The position numbers were made by a program, and so were the translations under genes. The notes beneath the pieces are model-generated. The model was not told the origin of the DNA, made no database searches, and saw only the letters and a list, made by a program, of their open reading frames with translations. Below are positions 12,246-35,501 of a DNA stretch of 64,000 nt, piece by piece. Source of the stretch: Escherichia coli (GTDB lineage Bacteria > Pseudomonadota > Gammaproteobacteria > Enterobacterales > Enterobacteriaceae); the NCBI RefSeq assembly GCF_003991155.1, contig NZ_CP031293.1; one strand, given 5' to 3'. Position 1 is the stretch's first letter, and each line of letters opens with the position of its first letter.

Positions 12246-13529
12246 TCACCGTTTGTAATCGATGGCTTCTGGCTGCTCCAGATATACGGTGGTTTGTGCC
12301 GGTTGTGTGCTGGCAATCACCTTGCCGCCACGTACCGAATAACGTACCGGAACCTGACGGCGCAGCGCATCAAACCCATTTTCAGCCGGCAGGATAATCA
12401 GGTTGGCGCTGTTTCCGGCGGCAATGCCGTAATCCTGCAAATTCAACGTCCTGGCACTGTGGTGGGTGATTAAATTCAGGCCATCGTTAATCTGCCCGTA
12501 GCCCATCAGCTGGCAAACATGCAGCCCCATATGCAGCACTTGCAGCATATTCGCCGTTCCCAGCGGATACCACGGATCGAAGACATCATCGTGACCAAAG
12601 CAGACGTTAATGCCGGACTCCAGCATCTCTTTAACGCGCGTGATGCCGCGACGTTTTGGATAGGTATCGAAACGTCCTTGCAGATGGATATTGACCAGCG
12701 GGTTGGCGACAAAGTTAATACCGGACATTTTCAGCAAGCGGAACAGGCGCGAGGTATACGCCCCGTTATAGGAGTGCATTGCCGTAGTGTGGCTGGCGCT
12801 GACTCGCGCGCCCATGCCTTCACGGTGCGCCAGGGCGGCAACGGTTTCAACAAAGCGCGACTGTTCGTCATCAATCTCATCACAGTGAACATCGATGAGA
12901 CGGTCGTATTTTTGCGCCAGGGCGAAGGTTTTATGCAGCGACTCCACGCCATATTCACGGGTAAATTCAAAATGCGGAATCGCCCCCACTACGTCTGCCC
13001 CTAAGCGTAACGCCTCTTCCAGCAACGCTTCACCGTTGGGATACGACAAAATCCCTTCCTGCGGGAAGGCGACGATTTGCAGATCAATCCACGGCGCAAC
13101 TTCCTGTTTCACTTCCAGCATCGCTTTCAACGCAGTCAGCGTTGCGTCGGAGACATCGACATGGGTACGCACATGCTGAATGCCGTTGGCAATCTGCCAT
13201 TTCAGCGTTTGCCAGGCGCGTTGTTTCACATCGTCATGGGTTAATAACGCTTTGCGCTCGGCCCAGCGTTCAATGCCTTCAAACAGCGTGCCGGACTGAT
13301 TCCAGTTCGGTTGTCCTGCGGTTTGCGTGGTGTCCAGGTGAATATGCGGCTCCACAAACGGCGGTATAACTAAACCTTGTTCGGCATCCAGGCTGTTTTC
13401 AGTTATGGGCATCACGCCGGATTGCGCATCAATGGCGCTGATTTTTCCGTCCTGCAGATAAATCTGCCACAGCCCCTCTTTGCCAGGTAACCGGGCGTTA
13501 ATAATTGTTTGTAAAGCGTTATTCGACAC
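12246..13529 (-). CDS. codA: cytosine deaminase
   Basis: ORF 12246..13544; GTG at 13529 gives (M)[15 protein letters not shown], 427 aa; amidohydrolase metal-binding HIHLD motif. Confidence 0.95.
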
Positions 13530-14778
13530 TGTTAGCCTCCACATGCGTCATTGCTGCTGTCGTTTTACGATTCAAAATCGGGTTAAGGATCAGATAGCTC
13601 AGCGCGCCACCTAATACCGCGTTGACCGGAACAATTCCCGGTAACCAGTGGCCTGCGGCAATCCCCAAGGCGACCGCCAGAATCGCCACCCAATTGACAC
13701 TCATCATACGCGTGGTCGCAAAGTGCTCATAGCGGCGACGGTTCATCAGATAGTCAGCGATGATCACGCCCCCTACCGGAGGAATAGCTGCCGAAAGGAA
13801 GGTCAGCCAGCCGACAAAATTGTTATACAGCCATAATGCGCAGACCGTACCGATAATACCGTTGATTACCGAAAGGGTTTTGCTCGACATCCCGGTAATG
13901 TTGGCGAAACCTAAGCCCGACGCATAGAGCGCGTTATCGTTGGTGGTCCAGATATTCAGCCCCAGCACCACAATCGCAGGCAGCAGCAGACCCTGAGCAA
14001 TCATCACATCAGAGATATCCGCCATCCCCAGTGCCGCCGCGCCCGCTGCACCGAAAATAAACATCAACGAGTTGCCGAGGAAAAAGGCCACCATCGCCAC
14101 CAGCACCGCCAGTTTGGCATTACGACCAAACCGGACAAAGTCAGCGGTGAGCGTGCCCGCACTGATAAATGACCCCACAACCAGCGCCAGCGCGACATTG
14201 AAATCTAACGGTTGTGCGGGAACGACCGCTTTTAATGCGTCCAGGCCGCCCATGCCGTTAACGGCCAACCACACGGAATAACCGCCAAGACAGGCGATAG
14301 CCGGAACTGCAATCACCGAAAGAACCGTCAGCGCCGAAATGCCAAAGAAGACGGTTACGGTCATCAGTAAACCGGAAACGGCAATCAGCAAATTAATATC
14401 CAGCCCGGTTGCCTTGCCCACCGGAATAGCAAACATCGCCACGCCAACGCCAAACCAGCCAACCTGAGTTCCGCCCAGTAGCAGTGAAGGCAGCCATGAG
14501 CCTTTAACACCAAAAGAGAAGCGAGCAAGAAGATGAGTGGTCAGGCCGGTTTTTGCGCCAATGTAACCAAGAAATGAAGTGTAAATACCGAGGAGAAGAT
14601 TACCGATGAGGACTGCGAGGAAGAAATCATGATAGCTAAGACCGGTTCCGAGAGTGCCGCCGGTCCACATACTGGCGGAAAAGAAGGTTAATCCCAGCAT
14701 GACGAACGTCAATGCCAACACCCCTTTCCGCGCCGACTGCGGGACTGGCCCCTGGCTAAAGTTGTTATCTTGCGACAC
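13519..14778 (-). CDS. codB: cytosine permease (NCS1 family)
   Basis: 419-aa polytopic membrane [32 protein letters not shown]; its stop overlaps the codA start by 11 nt. Confidence 0.95.
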
Positions 14779-26444: not shown

Positions 26445-26820
26445 TGTGTTTACTCCTGATTAGCTATGTGTATTTGGCGATGCCTGATATGTCATCGCGG
26501 CAAAACGCGTCCATTGAATATAGCCAATATTTAAACCACCCGATCCAGCCCCAACATGCCGCGAGCCTGAATGAAACAGAGCAGCAACGTTCCCCATAAG
26601 GCGAGCGCCTATAAGTGTGATATTTGCTATCCGTAAAAGACAAAAATCGGCAAAACTGATGATATTTTCACGTAGACAAATAGTTATCTACACAACGTCA
26701 ATAAGGGCATATTCTTCAAAGATAATGTCCATTTCTGCCGACACACTCATACTCAGGCCGCCCCACTCCCTGGGGCTTAAATCTCTTACTGTTCACCGTT
26801 GCAGATATATCAAGTTCGTA

Positions 26821-28203
26821 TCAACCTGCCACACTCCCCCACACCAGTTGCCCTTTATGGAACGTTGCGGTTCTCGGCGAGATACGCGCCACCGCCTCGG
26901 CGGAACAGGAGGCGTCCACCAGCACAAAGCTGGCGTCATCCTGCGCTTTGGGCCACACGCGCTCGCCTTTTTCGTTGAGCGGCAATACATCGCCAGTGGC
27001 TAAAAACAGCGAACGGGACAAATTCTGTTCGTTAGGACGAATATAGAGCTGCGCGTAGAGATTGGCTTTTTCCAGCATGTCGCCCAGGCCGTAGGGAGAC
27101 CAGTGGTCGATAACGCTGTCGGTGCCGGTCATGACTTGTACGCCTTTGTCGTGCAACTGTTTGAGCGGCATATGCAGCGTGCCAATCGGCACCGTCGAGG
27201 CGATAGAAATTTGCTGCGCCGCCATCCGGTGCGCCAGTTCATCTACCTGTTGCTCATTGAGCGTTGCCAACGCAAAGGCGTGACTGATGGTCAGCTTGCC
27301 CTTCAGCTGTGGCGTTTTCTCTACCGTTTCAACCATATAATTGATGGCTGCCACGCCCGACGGAGTGGTTTCGTGCAGGTGAATATCGACGCCTTTGTCG
27401 TAGTCCAGCGCAATCTGGAACATGGTGTCGAGGGATTTTTCCATCGCGCCATCGACACTGGTCGGGTCCAGTCCGCCGACGTAATGCGCACCCGCCTGCA
27501 TCGCTTCGCGCATTAAGGGTTCTGATTTCGACAGCAGCAAACCGTGCTGCGGGAAGGCGACAATTTCACACTCGAAGCCCGCCTGACGTCGCGCCAGAAC
27601 CGCCTGCAAATTTTGCAGATTTTTCAGGCCGGAAACCGGTTCGATATTGCAGTGGCTGCGGGCAATGGTGGTGCCTTTCGACTGCAATAAATCGATCAGT
27701 TTTTCCGCCCGCTCCTGCGTGTACGGTTGTAACTCCGGCAGCATTTTCTGCTCGAGTTTGATCATGTCCTGGATGGTGGTGCCTGCCGGGCGATTGAGCG
27801 AGCGCCACGGCCCGCCGTAGAAAGTTTTGTCGAGATGAATATGCATGTCGCGGGTGGTGGGCAGCATCAACTTACCGCCTGCGTCATAGTGCGGCAGCGT
27901 GGCCTCCGGATGCTGCTTGTTCTCGCGCAGGGCAACAATTTTGCCGTTCTGAATCTCTACGGTCTGGTGCGCCGTGCGGGTCTGCACCGCCACACCGTTT
28001 TCGTAGTCAAAACCGGTTTCCAGCAGCACGTTGTCGAGATAGTAGTGCGGGTCAGTGATTTTCATGGTGTTATTTGCCTCGCAGTGGGTTGTGCCAGAGA
28101 CTGCCGCATGGGCGAGCGGCACTGAGGTACCAAACAGCGCGGCGGCGGTAACCATCTTACCGCTCTGGCTCAGAAATTCACGGCGGCTATTGTTTTCTTT
28201 CAT
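26821..28203 (-). CDS. yahJ: amidohydrolase-family deaminase with twin-arginine (Tat) signal peptide
   Basis: 460 aa; N-terminus MKENNSRREFLSQSGKMVTAAALFGTSVPLAHA has an SRRxFL Tat motif; metal-dependent hydrolase fold (HIHLD). Confidence 0.85.
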   Translation of the reverse strand: MKENNSRREFLSQSGKMVTAAALFGTSVPLAHAAVSGTTHCEANNTMKITDPHYYLDNVLLETGFDYENGVAVQTRTAHQTVEIQNGKIVALRENKQHPEATLPHYDAGGKLMLPTTRDMHIHLDKTFYGGPWRSLNRPAGTTIQDMIKLEQKMLPELQPYTQERAEKLIDLLQSKGTTIARSHCNIEPVSGLKNLQNLQAVLARRQAGFECEIVAFPQHGLLLSKSEPLMREAMQAGAHYVGGLDPTSVDGAMEKSLDTMFQIALDYDKGVDIHLHETTPSGVAAINYMVETVEKTPQLKGKLTISHAFALATLNEQQVDELAHRMAAQQISIASTVPIGTLHMPLKQLHDKGVQVMTGTDSVIDHWSPYGLGDMLEKANLYAQLYIRPNEQNLSRSLFLATGDVLPLNEKGERVWPKAQDDASFVLVDASCSAEAVARISPRTATFHKGQLVWGSVAG

Positions 28204-28212
28204 CTTACGTCC

Positions 28213-29163
28213 TTAGGTTTTAATAATATGGGTGCCCGTTTCGCCGCGTAGCGCCGCAGGCAGGCATTCCGGCGTGGTGATAATCACTTTTTTACCGCCC
28301 TGCTCCAGGAACGTCAGGCTGGCGATGATTTTTGGCAACATGCTGCCGGGTGGGAAATGCCCTTCCTGCATATAGCGGGTCATGGTGGCAATATCCACCC
28401 GATCCAGCACCTGCTGCTGCGGTTTGCCAAAGTGAATACACACTTTTTCGACGCCAGTGGTGATCACCAGAATGTCGGCGTGAATTTCACGGGCCAATAG
28501 CGCGGTAGAGAGATCTTTGTCGATAACCGCGTCCACGCTTTGATAATCTCCCGCTTCGGTGCGCACCACAGGAATTCCACCGCCGCCCGCGCCAATCACC
28601 ACAAAGCCTTGTTGGATCAGCGCCTTAATGGCAGGTGCTTCGACAATACGTTTCGGTTCCGGCGAGGCGACCACGCGGCGATAGCCCCGTCCGGCATCTT
28701 CAACAAAACGCCAGTCAGGGTTTGCCTTTTGTAGTTCGTCACGCTGGCTTTCACTAAAGAATGCGCCGATGGGCTTGGTGGGATGGGCAAACCCCGGATC
28801 GTTTTTATCCACTTCCACCTGAGTCACCACGGTGACGGCTTTTTTCTCGCCGTGACGCGCCAGCCGGTTATTCAGCGCCTGCTGGATCAGATAGCCAATG
28901 CCGCCTTGCGTATCCGCCACACAGTTCGCCAGCGGCGTTAAGGGCAGCCCTTCGCGCTCGTGGGCAATCTCCGCGCGGCGTAAATCCAAACCGACCTGCG
29001 GTCCGTTGCCGTGGGTCAGCACAATGTCGTAATCGGAAGCCAGCATTTCCAGCACCGTATCGGCGACGGCCTTCACCGCCTCCGCCTGATGCTCAATCGA
29101 CTGGCTGGCGTTATCTTTGATAATGCTGTTGCCACCAATGGCAACGACCACAAGTTCTTTCAT
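28213..29163 (-). CDS. yahI: carbamate kinase-like protein
   Basis: ORF 28213..29280; ATG at 29163 gives MKELVVVAIGGNSII (amino-acid kinase fold, 316 aa). Confidence 0.82.
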   Translation of the reverse strand: MKELVVVAIGGNSIIKDNASQSIEHQAEAVKAVADTVLEMLASDYDIVLTHGNGPQVGLDLRRAEIAHEREGLPLTPLANCVADTQGGIGYLIQQALNNRLARHGEKKAVTVVTQVEVDKNDPGFAHPTKPIGAFFSESQRDELQKANPDWRFVEDAGRGYRRVVASPEPKRIVEAPAIKALIQQGFVVIGAGGGGIPVVRTEAGDYQSVDAVIDKDLSTALLAREIHADILVITTGVEKVCIHFGKPQQQVLDRVDIATMTRYMQEGHFPPGSMLPKIIASLTFLEQGGKKVIITTPECLPAALRGETGTHIIKT

Positions 29164-29258
29164 GTTGTTATGTCCGCTACAGAGGGTGATGGGGTTATGA
29201 GAGTGAGGTTGCCCTTCTCCCCAAAAGGGAGAAGGTATCGTAAGGTGCGGTTGGAGGG

Positions 29259-30677
29259 TCAGACGCCGTAACGTTCGCACCAGCCAAGAATGGCTTTCTC
29301 GAAGCAGGCGAAGGGTGGATGCACAATGCCCGCGCCAATCATGCCGACGCCCGCATCTTTATGGGCAATGGCGGTGTTGATCACCGGCAGAATGCCGCTG
29401 CTACCCACGCGGGTGATGTCGATTGCCGACGGCACGCCCATAAAACCGAGCAGCGGAATGGTCACGTTGGGGTTTTCGCCGAGAGTGATTTCGCGCATCT
29501 GACGGGAGAAATCGATAGCCTCTTCCACCGTACCGCCCACCAGCGCGACGATTGCAGGCGCGGTCGCCATAGCAAATCCGCCAATGCCGTAGGTTTCGGT
29601 GATGGCGCTGTCGCCGATATCCAGCCCCGAATCTTCCGGCTTATAACCGGCAAACATCGGGCCGATCACCTGCTGCGCCGGACCGGTAAACCATTGCCCC
29701 GGTAATCCGCTGACCCGCAGACCGAACTCGACGCCGTTACGCGCCATGGTGGTCACCACAGTGCTGTATTCGATGCCGTGCGCCGCATCCATCGCCGCTT
29801 TACACATCGCCATCCACGTCGGGCCGGAGAAGTAGTCACTGCTGGCGACAAACTCAAACACTTCGCGCTGTTGCTCGACGGAGTAGCCCGCCTGAATAAT
29901 CCCCGGCGTCAGCGCCTGAATCAGCAGCGTCGTCCCGGCGTTATTGCGGTTATGGCACTCATCGCCCATATGCAGCGCCTGCGCCAGCATTAAGCGCAGA
30001 TCGATTTCGCCGATAATTTTCATCGCGTCGCGCAGCATGGGTCCCTGCACATCGCGCATCCAGTTGAGGCGGTCGATCACGCTCTGGTCATTAGCGCCCA
30101 TACGCAAAATCTTCGCCATCTGCTCGCTCATGTTGGTATAAGCGATGTTGCCGTAGGTTTTGTTTTTCACGATGTGCATAAACATCGAGGCCGAGGTGAC
30201 GCCCGCCATCGATCCCACACAGTCGTGCTCGTGGCACGGCGAGAAAGTGATCTCACCGGAAGCCGCCAGTTCAGCCGCCTCGTCGAGATCTTTCGCCAGC
30301 CCTTCGAACACCAGCGCCCCGGTGACCGCGCCTTTCATCGCGCCGCACATTTTTTCCCAGGTGACCGGCGGCCCGGCGTGAAGAATGGTTTTCGGCGTCA
30401 TGCCCGGCACCACGTTAATCGCCTGATCAAAACCAATCAGCACCGGATGTGACTGAATAATGCGTTCCAGCGCCTGCTGGTTAGCGGCGGCGATTTTGTC
30501 TGCCAGCGGCGAATCGGCAATGTTGTCCAGCGCCTGCACCACCTGCATATTGCCCTGCCCCGGCGGCGTCCAGTCGAGTTGAGTCACTTCTACATGCTGC
30601 TTTTTCAAATCATCGCTAAACATGGCGATGCCGACGTTAATAACGTTCAACGGTTGGCTAAACAGTGACGGGCTCAT
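29259..30677 (-). CDS. yahG: DUF1116 protein (YlbE paralogue)
   Basis: 472-aa ORF; start ATG shares one nucleotide with the yahF stop (TGATG), indicating translational coupling. Confidence 0.8.
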   Translation of the reverse strand: MSPSLFSQPLNVINVGIAMFSDDLKKQHVEVTQLDWTPPGQGNMQVVQALDNIADSPLADKIAAANQQALERIIQSHPVLIGFDQAINVVPGMTPKTILHAGPPVTWEKMCGAMKGAVTGALVFEGLAKDLDEAAELAASGEITFSPCHEHDCVGSMAGVTSASMFMHIVKNKTYGNIAYTNMSEQMAKILRMGANDQSVIDRLNWMRDVQGPMLRDAMKIIGEIDLRLMLAQALHMGDECHNRNNAGTTLLIQALTPGIIQAGYSVEQQREVFEFVASSDYFSGPTWMAMCKAAMDAAHGIEYSTVVTTMARNGVEFGLRVSGLPGQWFTGPAQQVIGPMFAGYKPEDSGLDIGDSAITETYGIGGFAMATAPAIVALVGGTVEEAIDFSRQMREITLGENPNVTIPLLGFMGVPSAIDITRVGSSGILPVINTAIAHKDAGVGMIGAGIVHPPFACFEKAILGWCERYGV

Positions 30678-32224
30678 CAGGCTTCCTCCCCTTTGCAGAT
30701 AAATTCACGCGCCAGCAATCCGGTATTGGTGCTGCTGCTCGCCAGAATCACTCCGGCATCAAGCAGCATCTGGCTTTGTTGTTCTAATGATGGCGTATCA
30801 AGATCGGTACCCAGCACATAGGCGAGAATGATCAACTCGCGTCCTTCGGCAGCGGCGATCGCTTTCGCCTCTTTGATCGCCTCGATGGTGGAACCGACCG
30901 GATCTTCATGCGATCCAAACCCGAGCACAAAATCCATCACGATCACCGCCACTTCTGGATCGCGCGCTTCTTCGATCAACCGGCTGATGCGGTTGGTCGG
31001 GTCAATCATTGGATGCGGCTTGCCGTTGGTAAAATCGTCATCGCCAAAGTCGAGGAAGGTATGTTTGACGCAGCGGTTGATATCTTTCAGGCGGAATTCA
31101 GGATCGGGCTGGATGTTGCTGTAGACATCGCCGTGTTTTTCCATCACCGCGAACATGGTTTCGTCACACAGCGTACCGCCGCAGAACAGGCCACGAATGT
31201 ATTTCTGTTGTGGCTTCAGGCGAGCGCGCACGTCAGCAATCAATGGCTGGTTCAGGGTATGCAGATCGAGATGTTCCTGTTTCACGCCGGAGAGCATTAC
31301 CGCTTTCAGCGCCGCTTCTTTGCTGCCGCGAGCAAACTGTAGCCCCTGCTCATCCACTGGCGTTTCGCCACGACCGAGGAAGCAGACCACCACCGGCTTG
31401 CGGCAGGCACGTGCGCGTTCCAGCACTTTGCGGGCCACCGCAGGCGCAGGCGGTTTGGAGATAAGCACAATGATTTCAGTTTGCGGATCGTTTTCCAGCA
31501 TCCCGATGGCATCGAGCATCATCAGACCGCCGATTTTCTCGCTCAGGTCGCGCCCGCCGGTGCCAATCAGTTGCGAAACGCCGCCGCAAAATTCATGGAT
31601 ACGGACGCTCAGTTCCTGGCTGCCGGTGCCAGATGCGCCAACAATGCCGATGTTGCCGCGACGCACGGCGTTACCAAAGCAGAGCGCCGCGCCGTTGATA
31701 ATCGCCGTACCGCAGTCTGGCCCCATCATCAGCAGCCCTTTTTCGTGGGCCAACTGTTTGAGCGCCAGTTCATCTTCAACTGAGACGTTATCGGAAAACA
31801 GCATCACGTTAAGATCGTTTTGCAGCGCCTGACGCGCTTCGCGAGCGGCAAACAGACCGTTGACCGAAATCACCGCCAGGTTACTTTCCGGGATATGCTT
31901 TTTGGCGCTGGCAATAGTGGCATAGCGTGCTTCATGTGAACCAGTTTGAGCTTTGGTGTTGAACAGTTCTTCAATCTCCACCAGCAACTGCTCGTTGTCT
32001 GCGCCCGCTTTGCCGTTGATGACAATCATCAGGTCGCCGTTTTTCGCCTGCTCCAGTTCCGGCGTCAGCAGCCCTAAATTCTTCAGCACGCCTTTGTTCA
32101 TTTCGGTCGCCATCGCCACAAATGCCTGCTCGACGCCGTCGAGTTTATTTGCACGCGTGGAGATAGACATCAGCGAGACAGAATCAAAATAGGTATTCGG
32201 TTTAATGACTATTTTAACTGACAT
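30677..32224 (-). CDS. yahF: FdrA-like acyl-CoA synthetase (NDP-forming) / succinyl-CoA-ligase-alpha-like protein
   Basis: 515 aa; CoA-binding glycine-rich segments (GIVGASGTG, ISKPPAP); overlaps yahE by 11 nt. Confidence 0.85.
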   Translation of the reverse strand: MSVKIVIKPNTYFDSVSLMSISTRANKLDGVEQAFVAMATEMNKGVLKNLGLLTPELEQAKNGDLMIVINGKAGADNEQLLVEIEELFNTKAQTGSHEARYATIASAKKHIPESNLAVISVNGLFAAREARQALQNDLNVMLFSDNVSVEDELALKQLAHEKGLLMMGPDCGTAIINGAALCFGNAVRRGNIGIVGASGTGSQELSVRIHEFCGGVSQLIGTGGRDLSEKIGGLMMLDAIGMLENDPQTEIIVLISKPPAPAVARKVLERARACRKPVVVCFLGRGETPVDEQGLQFARGSKEAALKAVMLSGVKQEHLDLHTLNQPLIADVRARLKPQQKYIRGLFCGGTLCDETMFAVMEKHGDVYSNIQPDPEFRLKDINRCVKHTFLDFGDDDFTNGKPHPMIDPTNRISRLIEEARDPEVAVIVMDFVLGFGSHEDPVGSTIEAIKEAKAIAAAEGRELIILAYVLGTDLDTPSLEQQSQMLLDAGVILASSSTNTGLLAREFICKGEEA

Positions 32225-33077
32225 AATTCCCTCCGTAGGTTTGGCTCAGCGCACAACCATCGGCCATGCCATACAGCATGTCGCAGCCGGAACTGGAGCC
32301 AATATGTTTAATTTTTTCTATTGCCTGAGTTGCGTTCCCAGGGATGTCATAAATAATGTTATGAATAAAACGATGAATATTTTCCCGGCAGCGTTGTTGT
32401 AATGCGGCTTCCAGCGTTATGGCACTTAATAACGTGGTATTATTTCTGCCGCGTTGCAGACCGAGATAAAATTCCTCTTTGTATTTTTCCGCCGGATGTC
32501 CGGAAATAAATAAAATAAGCGCCAGACCTGTTAAATAATCGTCGGCTGATGGCGTAAGGCCAATCCCTAAGCCCATCATACTGGCGACTGCTGAGGCGAT
32601 ATTTTGTTTATCGTTTACGGCCTGAATAACTGCCCGTCGTTTAATATGTAATTCTTTATTTAACGCCTGATAAAACGGATTATCGCCGCAATAATTAAAC
32701 AGGGTTTCATTTTCCCCCAGGTGCTGATGAATAATGTCATGCCACTGTTGCCAGACGATAAGGTGAAAATTCACAGCGGTCATTTGCAAGGTTGGGGACA
32801 GCCAACGCTGGCAATGACTCATCTCTATATGAAGATGTTGACCAACCGTAATGCCTTGATCGTCAAACTGAACCTTATCACCATGATGGAACAGACCATT
32901 AAAGTGAGTGAGTGCCAACCGACAACTGTTTGGCGCATTGTCGTACTCTTCACAAAGCAGCGTCAGCAACTGCTGGCGGGCCGGAAGTGCGATATTTACC
33001 GCTCTGGCAAAGACCTGTTCAACCTGTCCTTGCCCCCGCTGCGCCAGAAAATCCGCATCCGCAGTTAGCGCCCACAC
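32214..33077 (-). CDS. yahE: DUF2877 protein (YlbF paralogue)
   Basis: 287-aa ORF between yahD and yahF; no catalytic motif recognised. Confidence 0.75.
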   Translation of the reverse strand: MWALTADADFLAQRGQGQVEQVFARAVNIALPARQQLLTLLCEEYDNAPNSCRLALTHFNGLFHHGDKVQFDDQGITVGQHLHIEMSHCQRWLSPTLQMTAVNFHLIVWQQWHDIIHQHLGENETLFNYCGDNPFYQALNKELHIKRRAVIQAVNDKQNIASAVASMMGLGIGLTPSADDYLTGLALILFISGHPAEKYKEEFYLGLQRGRNNTTLLSAITLEAALQQRCRENIHRFIHNIIYDIPGNATQAIEKIKHIGSSSGCDMLYGMADGCALSQTYGGNYVS

Positions 33078-33116
33078 ACACCGTCTTTCTGGTGTGTTGA
33101 TAGCAAGCCTCCCGGT

Positions 33117-33722
33117 TTATGCGCCTGCGGCAATCAGTAACTGCGCAATCTCTTCAAAGCCTCGTTCCCGCGCCAGTTCCAGCGGTGTTTTGCCATATTT
33201 ATCCGTCAGATGCGGGCTGGCACCGTGTTCCAGCAATAACTGGACAATCGCCTGCTGTTTAATCCCGCCATCATTAAGCACAATCGCTTCCAGTAGCGGC
33301 GTCCAGCCTACATGGTTGGTCTGGTTAACGTTAATCTCCGTATGCGCCAAAAGCTCTTTTACAATACTTAAATGGCCTTTTTCACAGGCAGGCGTCAGGC
33401 CGACACCGCCAAAACGGGTTACGCAATTAAGATCGGGTTTAGCCGGTAAAATAATTCGTAGTAGCGTTAAATCATCGTTCAGACAGCTAATTAAAAAAGG
33501 ATTTAAACAGGTATGATCTTGCTTATTAATATCCGCTCCAGCGTCAATTAATGCCTGAACGCAAGCATATTGCTGATATAAACTTGCCAGCGTAATTGCC
33601 GTTTTCCCCTGACGATCGCAGGTATTAATATCGACACCCAGCGCAAGGCAGGTTTTTACTTTATCGATATCACCCTGTTGCGCAGCCAATAAATAGTCGG
33701 CAGGTAGATTTTTTATAGTCAT
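33117..33722 (-). CDS. yahD: ankyrin-repeat protein
   Basis: 201 aa; repeated ankyrin signatures (G-TPL--A---GH---V--LL--GA), e.g. GWTPLLEAIVLNDGGIKQQAIVQLLLEHGA. Confidence 0.85.
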   Translation of the reverse strand: MTIKNLPADYLLAAQQGDIDKVKTCLALGVDINTCDRQGKTAITLASLYQQYACVQALIDAGADINKQDHTCLNPFLISCLNDDLTLLRIILPAKPDLNCVTRFGGVGLTPACEKGHLSIVKELLAHTEINVNQTNHVGWTPLLEAIVLNDGGIKQQAIVQLLLEHGASPHLTDKYGKTPLELARERGFEEIAQLLIAAGA

Positions 33723-33979
33723 TCACATTCCCCTGGTTTTTGTGGCTGTTTTCGATGAATTGAGAATAGCAACGATAATCTGATAAAAGAACCCGCTTAA
33801 ATTTAATTCGCCGTATTTCGCCTTTTTGTTGAATGATGTTCAACAATCTTTTCGCAGTGTGCGGTAGTGCAATATTTGTTTCTTTGACCCGATACCCTTT
33901 CACTCAATCAGGTTTTATTTCTCTATAGTCTGCACATGTAAGAGTAGCTTTCGTCCATGTCTAACCAGAGGGGAACAAG

Positions 33980-34477
33980 ATGAACGGACTCACGGCAACG
34001 GGTGTCACCGTCGGTATTTGTGCAGGGCTTTGGCAGTTAGTGTCTTCACATGTCGGGCTCTCTCAGGGATGGGAATTATTAGGAACCATTGGCTTCGTCG
34101 CCTTTTGCAGTTTTTATGCCGCAGGCGGCGGTAAATCGGGGTTTATCAGAAGCCTGGCGGTTAATTATTCCGGGATGGTGTGGGCGTTTTTCGCCGCGCT
34201 GGCTGCCGGTTGGCTGGCCTCGGTGAGTGGATTGTCCACGTTCTGGGCGAGCGTGATTATGACTGTACCCTTCTCGGCGATGGTGGTCTGGCAAGGGCGT
34301 TTCTGGTTACTGTCTTTTATTCCTGGAGGCTTTCTCGGCATGACGCTATTTTTTGCCAGCGGGATGAACTGGACGGTGACATTACTGGGTTTTCTGGCGG
34401 GTAACTGCGTGGGGATAATTTCAGAATATGGCGGACAAAAATTAAGCGAAGCGACGACTAAACGCGACGGGTATTAA
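33980..34477 (+). CDS. yahC: inner-membrane protein of unknown function
   Basis: 165-aa hydrophobic ORF divergent from yahD. Confidence 0.75.
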   Translation: MNGLTATGVTVGICAGLWQLVSSHVGLSQGWELLGTIGFVAFCSFYAAGGGKSGFIRSLAVNYSGMVWAFFAALAAGWLASVSGLSTFWASVIMTVPFSAMVVWQGRFWLLSFIPGGFLGMTLFFASGMNWTVTLLGFLAGNCVGIISEYGGQKLSEATTKRDGY

Positions 34478-34568
34478 AAGTTATTCAAAAATGATTATCT
34501 ATCTTTAACCGATACCTCTACAGTCATGGCTGGAGAAATTCATATTCGATAATGGCGGGAATGGTTTA

Positions 34569-35501
34569 ATGAACTCAATTTTTACCGAAGAGAATCTGTT
34601 GGCATTTACTACCGCTGCGCGTTTTGGCAGTTTCAGTAAAGCCGCAGAAGAGTTGGGTTTAACCACTTCCGCCATTAGCTACACCATCAAGCGAATGGAA
34701 ACAGGGCTGGATGTGGTGCTGTTCACTCGCAGTACCCGAAGCATTGAGTTAACGGAGTCCGGGCGTTATTTTTTCCGCAAAGCTACCGACCTGCTGAATG
34801 ATTTTCACGCCATCAAACGCAGCATCGATACTATTTCGCAGGGTATAGAAGCACGGGTGCGCATTTGTATTAACCAACTGCTTTATACGCCCAAACACAC
34901 CGCACGCTTATTACAGGTACTGAAAAAGCAGTTTCCAACCTGCCAGATTACCGTGACGACCGAAGTGTATAACGGCGTCTGGGATGCGATTATTAATAAT
35001 CAGGCGAATATTGCTATCGGCGCGCCCGACACACTGCTGGACGGCGGCGGCATTGATTACACGGAGATTGGCGCGATTCGCTGGGCTTTTGCTATCGCCC
35101 CGGATCACCCGTTAGCCTTTGTGCCGGAACCCATCGCCGAAAGCCAGCTGCGTCTCTATCCTAATATCATGGTGGAAGACACCGCGCATACGATTAATAA
35201 AAAAGTGGGCTGGTTGCTGCATGGGCAGGAGTCGATTCTGGTGCCAGATTTCAACACCAAATGTCAGTGCCAGATTTTAGGCGAAGGAATTGGTTTTTTG
35301 CCGGATTACATGGTCCGTGAGGCGATGGCGCAATCCCTGCTGGTTACCCGACAAATCCATAATCCGCGCCAGGATTCACGCATGTTACTGGCGACCCAGC
35401 ACTCTGCCACCGGTCAGGTGACGCAGTGGATTAAAAAACAATTTGCGCCAAATGGCATATTAACGGGGATCTATCAGGATTTACTGCATCGGGAGAATTA
35501 A
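34569..35501 (+). CDS. yahB: LysR-family transcriptional regulator
   Basis: 310 aa; N-terminal LysR HTH (FTTAARFGSFSKAAEELGLTTSAISYTIKRME). Confidence 0.88.
   Translation: MNSIFTEENLLAFTTAARFGSFSKAAEELGLTTSAISYTIKRMETGLDVVLFTRSTRSIELTESGRYFFRKATDLLNDFHAIKRSIDTISQGIEARVRICINQLLYTPKHTARLLQVLKKQFPTCQITVTTEVYNGVWDAIINNQANIAIGAPDTLLDGGGIDYTEIGAIRWAFAIAPDHPLAFVPEPIAESQLRLYPNIMVEDTAHTINKKVGWLLHGQESILVPDFNTKCQCQILGEGIGFLPDYMVREAMAQSLLVTRQIHNPRQDSRMLLATQHSATGQVTQWIKKQFAPNGILTGIYQDLLHREN

Follow-up and report, generated by a model that had tools for sequence, protein, structure and literature searches.

What reaction does the yahDEFGIJ gene cluster of Escherichia coli encode, and how does it relate to the carbamoyl-transfer genes of the allantoin region? 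The cluster lies in a stretch of 64,000 nucleotides of E. coli contig NZ_CP031293.1 (hereafter, the window), and an original prediction from the letters of this DNA had described it as a six-gene operon resembling a carbamoyltransferase and carbamate kinase module. We followed up this prediction computationally, and those of its parts that can be checked in this way were borne out, apart from the corrections given below. Our best reading, from sequence relationships, is that yahB, yahC where it is present, and yahDEFGIJ belong to a single catabolic cassette that moves horizontally and that corresponds, as the Yah type, to AllS and AllFGHK. By analogy with the All system, we consider it fairly probable that the cassette is a catabolic module generating carbamoyl phosphate; no particular substrate is favored to the same degree, each being much less likely than the module itself.

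The K-12 proteins of the allantoin region were compared with the Yah proteins by BLASTP. YahF is 38% identical to AllF (FdrA) over 513 aa (E = 2e-100), YahG is 45% identical to AllG (YlbE; E = 2e-119), YahI is 38% identical to AllK (YbcF; E = 3e-57), and YahE shares 23% identity with AllH (YlbF; E = 2e-9) and matches the Pfam family AllH (PF11392) with E = 3.6e-28. The predicted likeness of the E-F-G-I genes to the allantoin genes is thus a clear homology of YahF/G/E/I to AllF/G/H/K. It extends to the regulator, as YahB is 39% identical to AllS (E = 6e-73). The best NCBIfam match of YahB is also AllS, and at 268 bits it misses the equivalog cut-off of 372, so we rejected the identification of YahB as AllS itself in favor of a paralogue. 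Regulator and enzymes are paralogous as one set, with YahB the closest relative of AllS. Purified AllF-AllG-AllH was identified in 2024 as an oxamate carbamoyltransferase and AllK as a catabolic carbamate kinase, in papers where the yah genes go unmentioned (PMC11326118, PMC9843812), and allFGHK is directly activated by AllS (PMC12535856). The first 52 aa of YahG have their homologue in the C-terminal tail of AllF (E = 2e-8), and the exchange of this ~50-aa segment between AllF and YahG suggests that F and G contact each other. In Zophobihabitans entericus (locus L061, 7539-9992; positions with an L number are those of the respective locus), YahE and YahF are fused in one 817-aa frame, a Rosetta-stone hint of interaction. 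The segment exchange and the E-F fusion together argue for a physical complex.

E. coli chromosomes match the whole region with 100% identity, and the gene layout agrees with the RefSeq annotation of the identical record (Table 1). Both this annotation and the list of open reading frames (ORFs) place the six co-directional minus-strand genes where the original prediction had them, and its family assignments for all six proteins (ankyrin, AllH, FdrA, AllG, carbamate kinase and amidohydrolase with a twin-arginine translocation (Tat) signal) were confirmed. The three junctions named in the prediction were found: yahE and yahF share 11 nt (from the yahF ATG at 32224 to the yahE TAA, which ends at 32214), TGATG joins yahF to yahG, and a 9-nt spacer separates yahI from yahJ. 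This spacer also contains an AAGGA Shine-Dalgarno sequence. The genes are probably translationally coupled at these three junctions. The claim of tight packing holds there and fails at yahG/yahI, where the gap of 95 bp in the window, and of 421 bp in K-12, means that the genes are not tightly packed throughout. The K-12 spacer (L083, 8745-9165) consists of tandem units of repetitive extragenic palindromic (REP) sequences and bacterial interspersed mosaic elements and was formerly called 'yahH'. A ribosome-profiling study of enterohaemorrhagic E. coli found footprints across the G-I spacer and proposed yahDEFGIJ as one operon.

Table 1. Features of the yah cassette in the window, with ratios of nonsynonymous to synonymous substitution rates (dN/dS) computed within the clade of loci that lack the permease gene.
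Feature	Positions	Strand	Length	Assignment or content	dN/dS
yahJ	26821-28203	minus	460 aa	putative Tat-exported deaminase of the CodA/AtzC-type amidohydrolase fold	0.03-0.07
yahI	28213-29163	minus	316 aa	carbamate kinase family	0.02-0.07
yahG-yahI spacer	29164-29258	minus	95 bp	9-bp hairpin	
yahG	29259-30677	minus	472 aa	AllG family (former DUF1116)	0.015-0.03
yahF	30677-32224	minus	515 aa	AllF/FdrA family; HMA-like N-domain, CoA-binding and CoA-ligase domains	0.07-0.08
yahE	32214-33077	minus	287 aa	AllH family (former DUF2877); GTG start	0.19-0.27
yahD	33117-33722	minus	201 aa	ankyrin-repeat protein; first gene of the operon	0.07-0.15
yahD control region	33758-33872	minus		four conserved blocks, 14 taxa	
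control-region block	33872-33858			TTGCACTACCGCACA; conserved as TTGCACnnnCGCACA	
control-region palindrome	33846-33826			TTGTTGAA-N5-TTCAACAA, upstream of yahD	
control-region block	33809-33793			GAATTAAATTTAAGCGG; conserved as GAATnAAATTTAAGCGG	
control-region block	33773-33763			GTTGCTATTCT, resembles an extended -10 element	
yahC	33980-34477	plus	165 aa	small DUF1097 inner-membrane protein	0.06-0.12
yahB	34569-35501	plus	310 aa	LysR-type regulator	0.016-0.03

The enzyme subunits bear out the relationship to the All proteins in their domains and motifs. YahF scores 488.8 bits against NF004760 (cut-off 433) and matches the PDB structure of FdrA (3dmy, 4e-81); its orthologues carry PF27530, PF02629 and PF00549 (HMA_AllF_N, CoA_binding and Ligase_CoA), and the invariant residues of the YahF/AllF family include GASGTG, GGRD, SKPPA and D-x-G-D-D-x-x-T-x-G-x-PHPMIDP. 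The RefSeq/PGAP name of 30677-32224, 'fdrA: acyl-CoA synthetase FdrA', mixes the gene up with the true fdrA/allF and has been overtaken by the work on AllFGH. It nevertheless raises the alternative that YahF is an acyl-CoA synthetase resembling succinyl-CoA synthetase, with CoA-dependent chemistry and YahI acting on another acyl phosphate, and the CoA_binding and Ligase_CoA domains and the similarity to the succinyl-CoA synthetase alpha subunit would agree with the name. We regard this as highly improbable. The same annotation sat on FdrA/AllF, which is now a subunit of oxamate carbamoyltransferase; the cassette encodes no ATP-grasp partner (the N-terminal part of the beta subunit); and YahF resembles the alpha subunit over residues 100-285 only, short of the phosphohistidine loop, which we take to lie beyond the alignable part. 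A full-length carbamate kinase with intact motifs is moreover encoded beside it. YahI scores 648 bits against PRK12352 (cut-off 266) and 346.9 bits against the arcC equivalog TIGR00746, just under its cut-off of 358.25, and its residues 3-314 align with the crystallized carbamate kinases (1e19 and 1b7b) of Pyrococcus furiosus (4e-83) and Enterococcus faecalis (5e-73). We looked for loss of the motifs GGN, HGNGPQVG, TKPIG, IDKD and MLPK, which we take to be catalytic from the E. faecalis and P. furiosus structures, and found all of them kept, so that YahI, as predicted, is probably a carbamate kinase. In an over-expression screen, a fragment of E. coli UTI89 with yahD-yahE-yahF (31500-33722 in the window) was 17-fold enriched among the clones that form filaments (PMC6206680), which recalls the first description of FdrA as a multicopy suppressor of ftsH mutations.

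To define which parts of the cassette travel together, one genome per species was scanned, which gave 475 YahG relatives; the locus counts below refer to the best 80 of these 475. These 80 loci carry a divergent yahB and a yahD-yahE-yahF-yahG-...-yahI-yahJ unit, with flanks that are unrelated between genera, and span Escherichia, Citrobacter, Kluyvera, Klebsiella, Raoultella, Enterobacter, Serratia, Buttiauxella, Providencia, Proteus and Aeromonas. In the window, the cassette is neighbored by yahK, yahL, pdeL and betT; in the yahJ-yahK interval, at 26531-26605, RefSeq has a hypothetical-protein fragment of 75 bp that lacks the N-terminus, which marks the downstream edge of the cassette. A related unit, 82% identical in nucleotides, occurs on ~70 plasmids of E. 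coli and Klebsiella as a LysR gene and ankyrin-E-F-G-permease-kinase. These plasmids are predominantly conjugative by typing, many come from avian or urinary isolates, and their carriage of a yah-like cassette gives host strains two copies. The one plasmid examined, pMS1718-1 (NZ_CP097712.1; L089, 6031-14464), is of type IncF, with IS100/IS1 flanks and an intact permease gene. Janthinobacterium has ankyrin-E-F-G-permease-kinase-LysR, with the regulator downstream and co-directional, and Shimwellia has a LysR gene and ankyrin-F-G-permease-kinase, lacking yahE; yahJ is absent from the plasmid, Janthinobacterium and Shimwellia cassettes alike. The Firmicute versions have regulators of the PucR type, a purine-catabolism family. 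Brevibacillus and Paenibacillus combine such a regulator with ankyrin-E-F-G, an NCS1 permease, the kinase and a deaminase of the cytidine deaminase (CDA) fold; Sporosarcina has PucR and E-F-G followed by a 389-aa membrane protein, an NCS1 permease and a CDA-fold deaminase, with no adjacent kinase or ankyrin gene; and in Trichococcus ankyrin-E-F-G is preceded by a pair of cytoplasmic amidohydrolases like YahJ (36-37% identical). These variants define as constant parts F and G together with a membrane protein and a regulator; ankyrin and kinase are usual, and the deaminase is optional. Between Pseudocitrobacter faecalis (L007) and the window (26821-35501), synonymous divergence (dS) is 0.25-0.34 for yahF/G/I/J and 1.35-2.1 for yahB/C/D/E. 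This jump between yahE and yahF indicates that the lineages of Escherichia and Pseudocitrobacter recently exchanged the F-J half of the cassette, by recombination or transfer.

The components differ widely in how well they are kept. YahG is the most conserved protein of the cassette, 76-79% identical to its Firmicute (Bacillales) and betaproteobacterial (Janthinobacterium) orthologues, which is an unusual level; PF06545 (AllG) is present on all homologues, and yahG is encoded immediately after yahF. YahE is the fastest-evolving component, and its gene is gone from 24 of 73 related enterobacterial loci, where the D-F gap is down to 15-110 bp, as well as from Shimwellia and Jeotgalibaca. YahD has ankyrin repeats and no hydrophobic segment and is predicted to be cytoplasmic; its gene is present in 78 of the 80 loci and in the Brevibacillus, Janthinobacterium, Trichococcus, Jeotgalibaca and Shimwellia cassettes. 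The ankyrin protein, which is not in the all cluster, appears to be a hallmark of the Yah-type cassette.

These data allow a closer comparison with AllS and AllFGHK. The two systems are alike in that all five All proteins have a Yah paralogue, F precedes G, the subunit genes are coupled, the LysR proteins are of the same subfamily, and the predicted output is carbamoyl phosphate, converted to ATP, NH3 and CO2. They are unlike in gene order (E(H)-F-G-I in Yah, F-G-H-K in All) and in the position of the ~50-aa segment (N-terminus of YahG, C-terminus of AllF). The Yah type has three further components, namely an ankyrin protein, either a permease or YahC, and a deaminase in the periplasm; it dispenses with the AllH homologue in many cassettes, whereas AllH is required in E. 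coli AllFGH; and it is far more conserved, wider spread and plasmid-borne. Allantoin genes flank none of the 80 loci, so the allantoin-regulon context (allDCE) is missing. Because the Yah type lacks this context and does not keep the AllH homologue throughout, we regard Yah as a variant of the AllFGHK kind and not as a second copy of it. A third FdrA/DUF1116/carbamate-kinase set, in genomic region GR29 of the extraintestinal pathogenic E. coli (ExPEC) strain BEN2908, likewise has an F-G-kinase module, beside a nucleobase-type NCS1 permease and a hydrolase; it differs in having ~40-46% identity to YahG/FdrA, a RutB/isochorismatase-like hydrolase and a kinase closest to YqeA (PMC12928451).

What would feed such a module? 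YahJ belongs to an uncharacterized amidohydrolase subfamily of NCBIfam (PRK06846; 715 bits, cut-off 447), and the structures nearest to it are those of AtzC (N-isopropylammelide isopropylaminohydrolase; 6nbo, 4e-44) and of cytosine deaminase. We rejected the identification of YahJ as a cytosine deaminase, because the respective models score 70-104 bits against cut-offs of 403-483 and identity to CodA is 23%, and as an AtzC orthologue, because the match reaches 4e-44 only. Residues H121, H123, Q219, H275, E278, H308 and D362 align with CodA residues that we take, from CodA structures, to be metal ligands, the catalytic Glu and His, and the substrate-binding Gln. YahJ is therefore like CodA and AtzC in its fold, its HxH...H...D metal site and its catalytic Glu/His/Gln, and unlike them in its Tat signal and its PRK06846 membership. 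CodA is also the nearest characterized E. coli relative of YahJ, and codA (a deaminase of cytosine, creatinine and isoguanine) and codB (its NCS1 permease) lie in the same window, at 12246-14778 (codA, 12246-13544). The twin-arginine signal of YahJ (MKENNSRREFLSQSGKMVTAAALFGTSVPLAHA) comprises an SRREFL motif, a hydrophobic region and an AHA cleavage site. Of 75 orthologues, 64 have the motif in its strict form, and the displayed variants GRREFL, GRRAFL and DRRQFL retain RR-x-F-L. This conservation, together with the listing of YahJ among the predicted Tat substrates of the ExPEC strain PCN033 (PMC7549933), suggests that YahJ is periplasmic. The original prediction had YahJ as the amidohydrolase that releases the substrate; an amidohydrolase of the deaminase type it does appear to be, whereas Tat export implies feeding from outside and not release in the cytoplasm, and the gene is dispensable. 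YahJ seems to be optional, and in Bacillales it is apparently replaced by the unrelated CDA-fold enzyme, whose nearest structures are B. subtilis guanine deaminase (1.5e-31) and NE0047. Both deaminase families met in the cassettes act on amino-oxo heterocycles (such as guanine, ammeline/ammelide, cytosine and creatinine).

A periplasmic or external source would require uptake, and 58 loci carry a gene for a polytopic membrane protein of 512-532 aa (the 517-aa permease) between yahG and yahI. This protein has no sequence match in Pfam, NCBIfam or the PDB. Its AlphaFold model is poor (predicted local distance difference test score, pLDDT, 51), and Foldseek returns only 7+7 UraA-fold transporters (SLC26, NCS2 and AzgA), which is a weak lead that the permease may be UraA-fold-like. 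The permease at the same position of the Bacillales cassettes is of the NCS1 type and resembles allantoin permease. In several Firmicutes, a polytopic membrane protein of 389-397 aa and no Pfam family follows the AllG-type gene (L087, 11198-12379; L088, 11485-12669; L090, 10892-12085; L093, 10520-11689), with 67% identity between two of them; it may be more than a transporter, because it coexists with the NCS1 permease in Sporosarcina. The 18 loci without the permease form one clade (Escherichia, Kluyvera, Klebsiella/Raoultella, Pseudocitrobacter and C. amalonaticus), and a search of the window turned up no trace of the permease gene. Of these 18 loci, 16 have yahC in the yahB-yahD interval, and two are cut off upstream; no locus has both permease and yahC, the latter counted in 16-17 loci overall. 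YahC is thus a candidate replacement transporter, and we offer its replacement of the permease as a hypothesis only, because the pattern reflects a single evolutionary event.

The cassette also brings its own putative regulator. The original prediction named the divergent LysR gene yahB as a candidate, and its paralogy with AllS and its position next to the cassette in 75 of the 80 loci speak for this; it is not directly divergent in E. coli, where yahC intervenes. In most genera, yahB begins directly across the control region from yahD. Four blocks of this region (Table 1), each single-copy in the window, are kept in 14 taxa from Escherichia to Aeromonas and in the plasmid copy, and we infer that it is a YahB-dependent promoter. 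We rejected an operator shared with AllS: an apparent resemblance (ATCCGCT) to the AllS-bound allD-allF fragment failed a scan with a position weight matrix of the conserved yah operator box, in which the fragment fell outside the top matches. In the searchable literature, YahB appears only in lists of candidate regulators.

Is the E. coli cassette, having lost its permease, still in use? All eight genes are under purifying selection, with dN/dS below 0.3 (Table 1), and on these values we reject decay of the cluster in E. coli after the loss of the permease. A cryptic remnant, with the permease deleted, REP elements in its place and the genes disused, is accordingly very unlikely in our view. 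Such a remnant would account for the missing trace in E. coli of a permease carried by 58 other genomes, for REP content that varies at the site and for the low yah expression in lysogeny broth seen in the ribosome-profiling study, and no yah phenotype is on record. In Escherichia albertii NBRC 107761 (L005), yahF has an in-frame TAG that leaves ORFs of 216 and 283 aa. This stop counts for a remnant too; the gene is likely to be a pseudogene there, or else the draft genome has a sequencing error. Against a remnant stand the selection on all eight genes including yahC (dN/dS 0.015-0.27) and the finding of the cluster in 5187 of 5426 complete E. coli genomes, 4985 of which hold at least 80% of the query (~92-96% retention). 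A delta-yahJ mutant of ExPEC, moreover, has a modest but significant competitive defect in mice, with a competitive index of 0.70 (PMC7549933).

The sequence data establish the homologies, the catalytic motifs, the make-up of the cassette, the export signal and purifying selection; from these we infer a scheme that covers the reaction and its course, the enzyme complex, the target of the regulator and the class of substrate. In the periplasm, YahJ would hydrolyze an exocyclic amino or imino group of an N-heterocycle or an acyl-guanidine-like compound to NH3 and the oxo (acyl-ureide) form. This product, or the same compound from the environment, would be imported in most genera by the 517-aa UraA-fold-like permease, and possibly by YahC in the E. 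coli lineage. In the cytoplasm, a YahF-YahG core, helped by the ankyrin protein YahD and by YahE where present, would split the carbamoyl-N bond by phosphorolysis, forming carbamoyl phosphate and an amide, as AllFGH does with oxalurate and formally like the acyl-phosphate-forming half-reaction of succinyl-CoA synthetase. YahI would then move the phosphate to ADP, yielding ATP, NH3 and CO2, and YahB would activate the yahD promoter through the conserved upstream palindromes. The scheme is like the generally known arginine and agmatine deiminase pathways, in which a deiminase or deaminase makes a ureido compound, carbamoyl phosphate is formed, carbamate kinase makes ATP and the operon encodes a transporter (PMC6022934). 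It is unlike them in that the kinase alone is homologous: the Yah carbamoyltransferase is of the AllFGH type and not of the ornithine or aspartate transcarbamylase (OTCase/ATCase) fold, and the Yah deaminase has the amidohydrolase or CDA fold instead of the guanidino-modifying fold and is periplasmic in Enterobacterales. The module could instead run in the synthetic direction, with YahI making carbamoyl phosphate from carbamate and ATP and YahF/G carbamoylating an imported amide for detoxification or modification. AllFGH works reversibly, and its assay followed carbamoylation (PMC11326118), and some carbamate-kinase-like enzymes are generally known to be anabolic (PMC6022934). We nonetheless give this direction hardly any weight, since the paralogous All system is catabolic and the deaminases, the uptake-type permeases and the PucR- and AllS-like regulators all fit degradation.

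Within the catabolic reading, one candidate substrate is that of the paralogue. Oxalurate and parabanic acid are oxidation products of urate and guanine, and the cassette could encode a second oxamate carbamoyltransferase that is dedicated to them when they are supplied from outside, and not to oxalurate that comes from allantoin, with YahJ turning an imino analogue into parabanate or oxalurate. All subunits are in the AllFGH families, and the cassette has no dehydrogenase or other upstream enzyme, which fits a directly imported acyl-ureide. Enterococci and streptococci have a stand-alone oxalurate pathway with a transcarbamylase inducible by parabanic acid, according to references cited in PMC11326118. 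The uncharacterized PDB chain 3clq is of the YahG type rather than the AllG type (654 bits with YahG, 379 with AllG), which may also speak for this alternative. At the 3clq-protein locus (L087, 9751-11155), the AllG-type gene is split (77 and 384 aa), the AllH-type gene is short (230 aa), and kinase, ankyrin and deaminase genes are not adjacent, so that the cluster is degraded or the assembly contains errors. On balance we think the oxalurate alternative unlikely: two enzymes for one substrate in one cell would be redundant, the ankyrin subunit and the optional AllH homologue differ from AllFGH, and identities of 45% for YahG/AllG and 23% for YahE/AllH, beside 76-79% among YahG orthologues across phyla, suggest a distinct, conserved specificity. 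By analogy, the permeases and the PucR/AllS-type regulators point to purine-derived ureides.

Several observations weigh against a carbamoyl-phosphate-generating module, at least in the form proposed here. Unsubstituted carbamoyl phosphate needs a terminal ureido group. Because a ring compound cannot yield it in one phosphorolytic step, there is a gap between the product of the deaminase and the substrate of YahF/G, and the cassette encodes no obvious ring-opening enzyme. The gap implies that the true substrate may be acyclic (oxalurate-, biuret- or allophanate-like); alternatively, the ring may come apart unaided once it is deaminated, in the manner of parabanate, or the proteins YahD/E/F/G may be capable of more than AllFGH is. 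The Yah enzyme may also differ from AllFGH because YahE, whose counterpart AllH is needed there, is absent from many cassettes, and the analogy between YahF and succinyl-CoA synthetase is partial in mechanism because the alignment ends before the phosphohistidine loop. E. coli has no dedicated permease, and the carbamate kinase gene is not adjacent in several Firmicute versions. A simple scan of the coding strand for sigma-70 promoter and terminator consensus sequences found nothing, with counts below the shuffled expectation, a result that carries little weight. Finally, no paper in the searchable literature characterizes any yah gene of the cluster, which is still listed as uncharacterized (PMC11551758).

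With these points in view, a bolder form of the carbamoyl-phosphate module can be advanced tentatively, as a possibility that we rate below even chances. Here, the YahF-YahG core would be a widespread, plasmid-mobile, phosphorolytic 'acyl-ureide lyase', and with interchangeable deaminases and permeases and the kinase it would make up an unrecognized pathway, organized like the arginine deiminase route, in which an acyl-guanidine or an amino-oxo-heterocycle is the source of ATP and two NH3 and the ankyrin protein is an enzyme subunit. Its substrates could be, for example, oxidized purine products ((imino)parabanate, oxalylguanidine or oxalurate) or compounds of the guanylurea/biuret type. The bare paralogy of Yah and AllFGH is not new, because it is implicit in the databases (Pfam names the AllG and AllH families, PGAP calls YahF 'FdrA'), and one paper already writes 'fdrA/yahF'. 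What appears new is the duplication of the regulator with the enzymes, the mobile, plasmid-borne unit, the loss of the permease in E. coli, the displacement of the deaminase, the dispensability of YahE, the ankyrin protein as the Yah hallmark and the exceptional conservation of YahG.

AllFGH is unrelated to the ATCase/OTCase fold, and yah represents a second form of this enzyme type, much more conserved and wider spread, that comes with a regulator, transporter, deaminase and kinase of its own. Its substrate, judging by the comparisons, is to be sought among amino-/oxo-N-heterocycles and acyl-ureides. Assigning the substrate would take eight genes out of the E. coli 'y-ome', explain the third carbamate kinase of E. 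coli and give a bacterial ankyrin protein its first role inside a metabolic enzyme system. It would also define a new ATP-yielding route of nitrogen scavenging in Enterobacterales of the gut and urinary tract and on the plasmids of avian pathogenic and uropathogenic E. coli.

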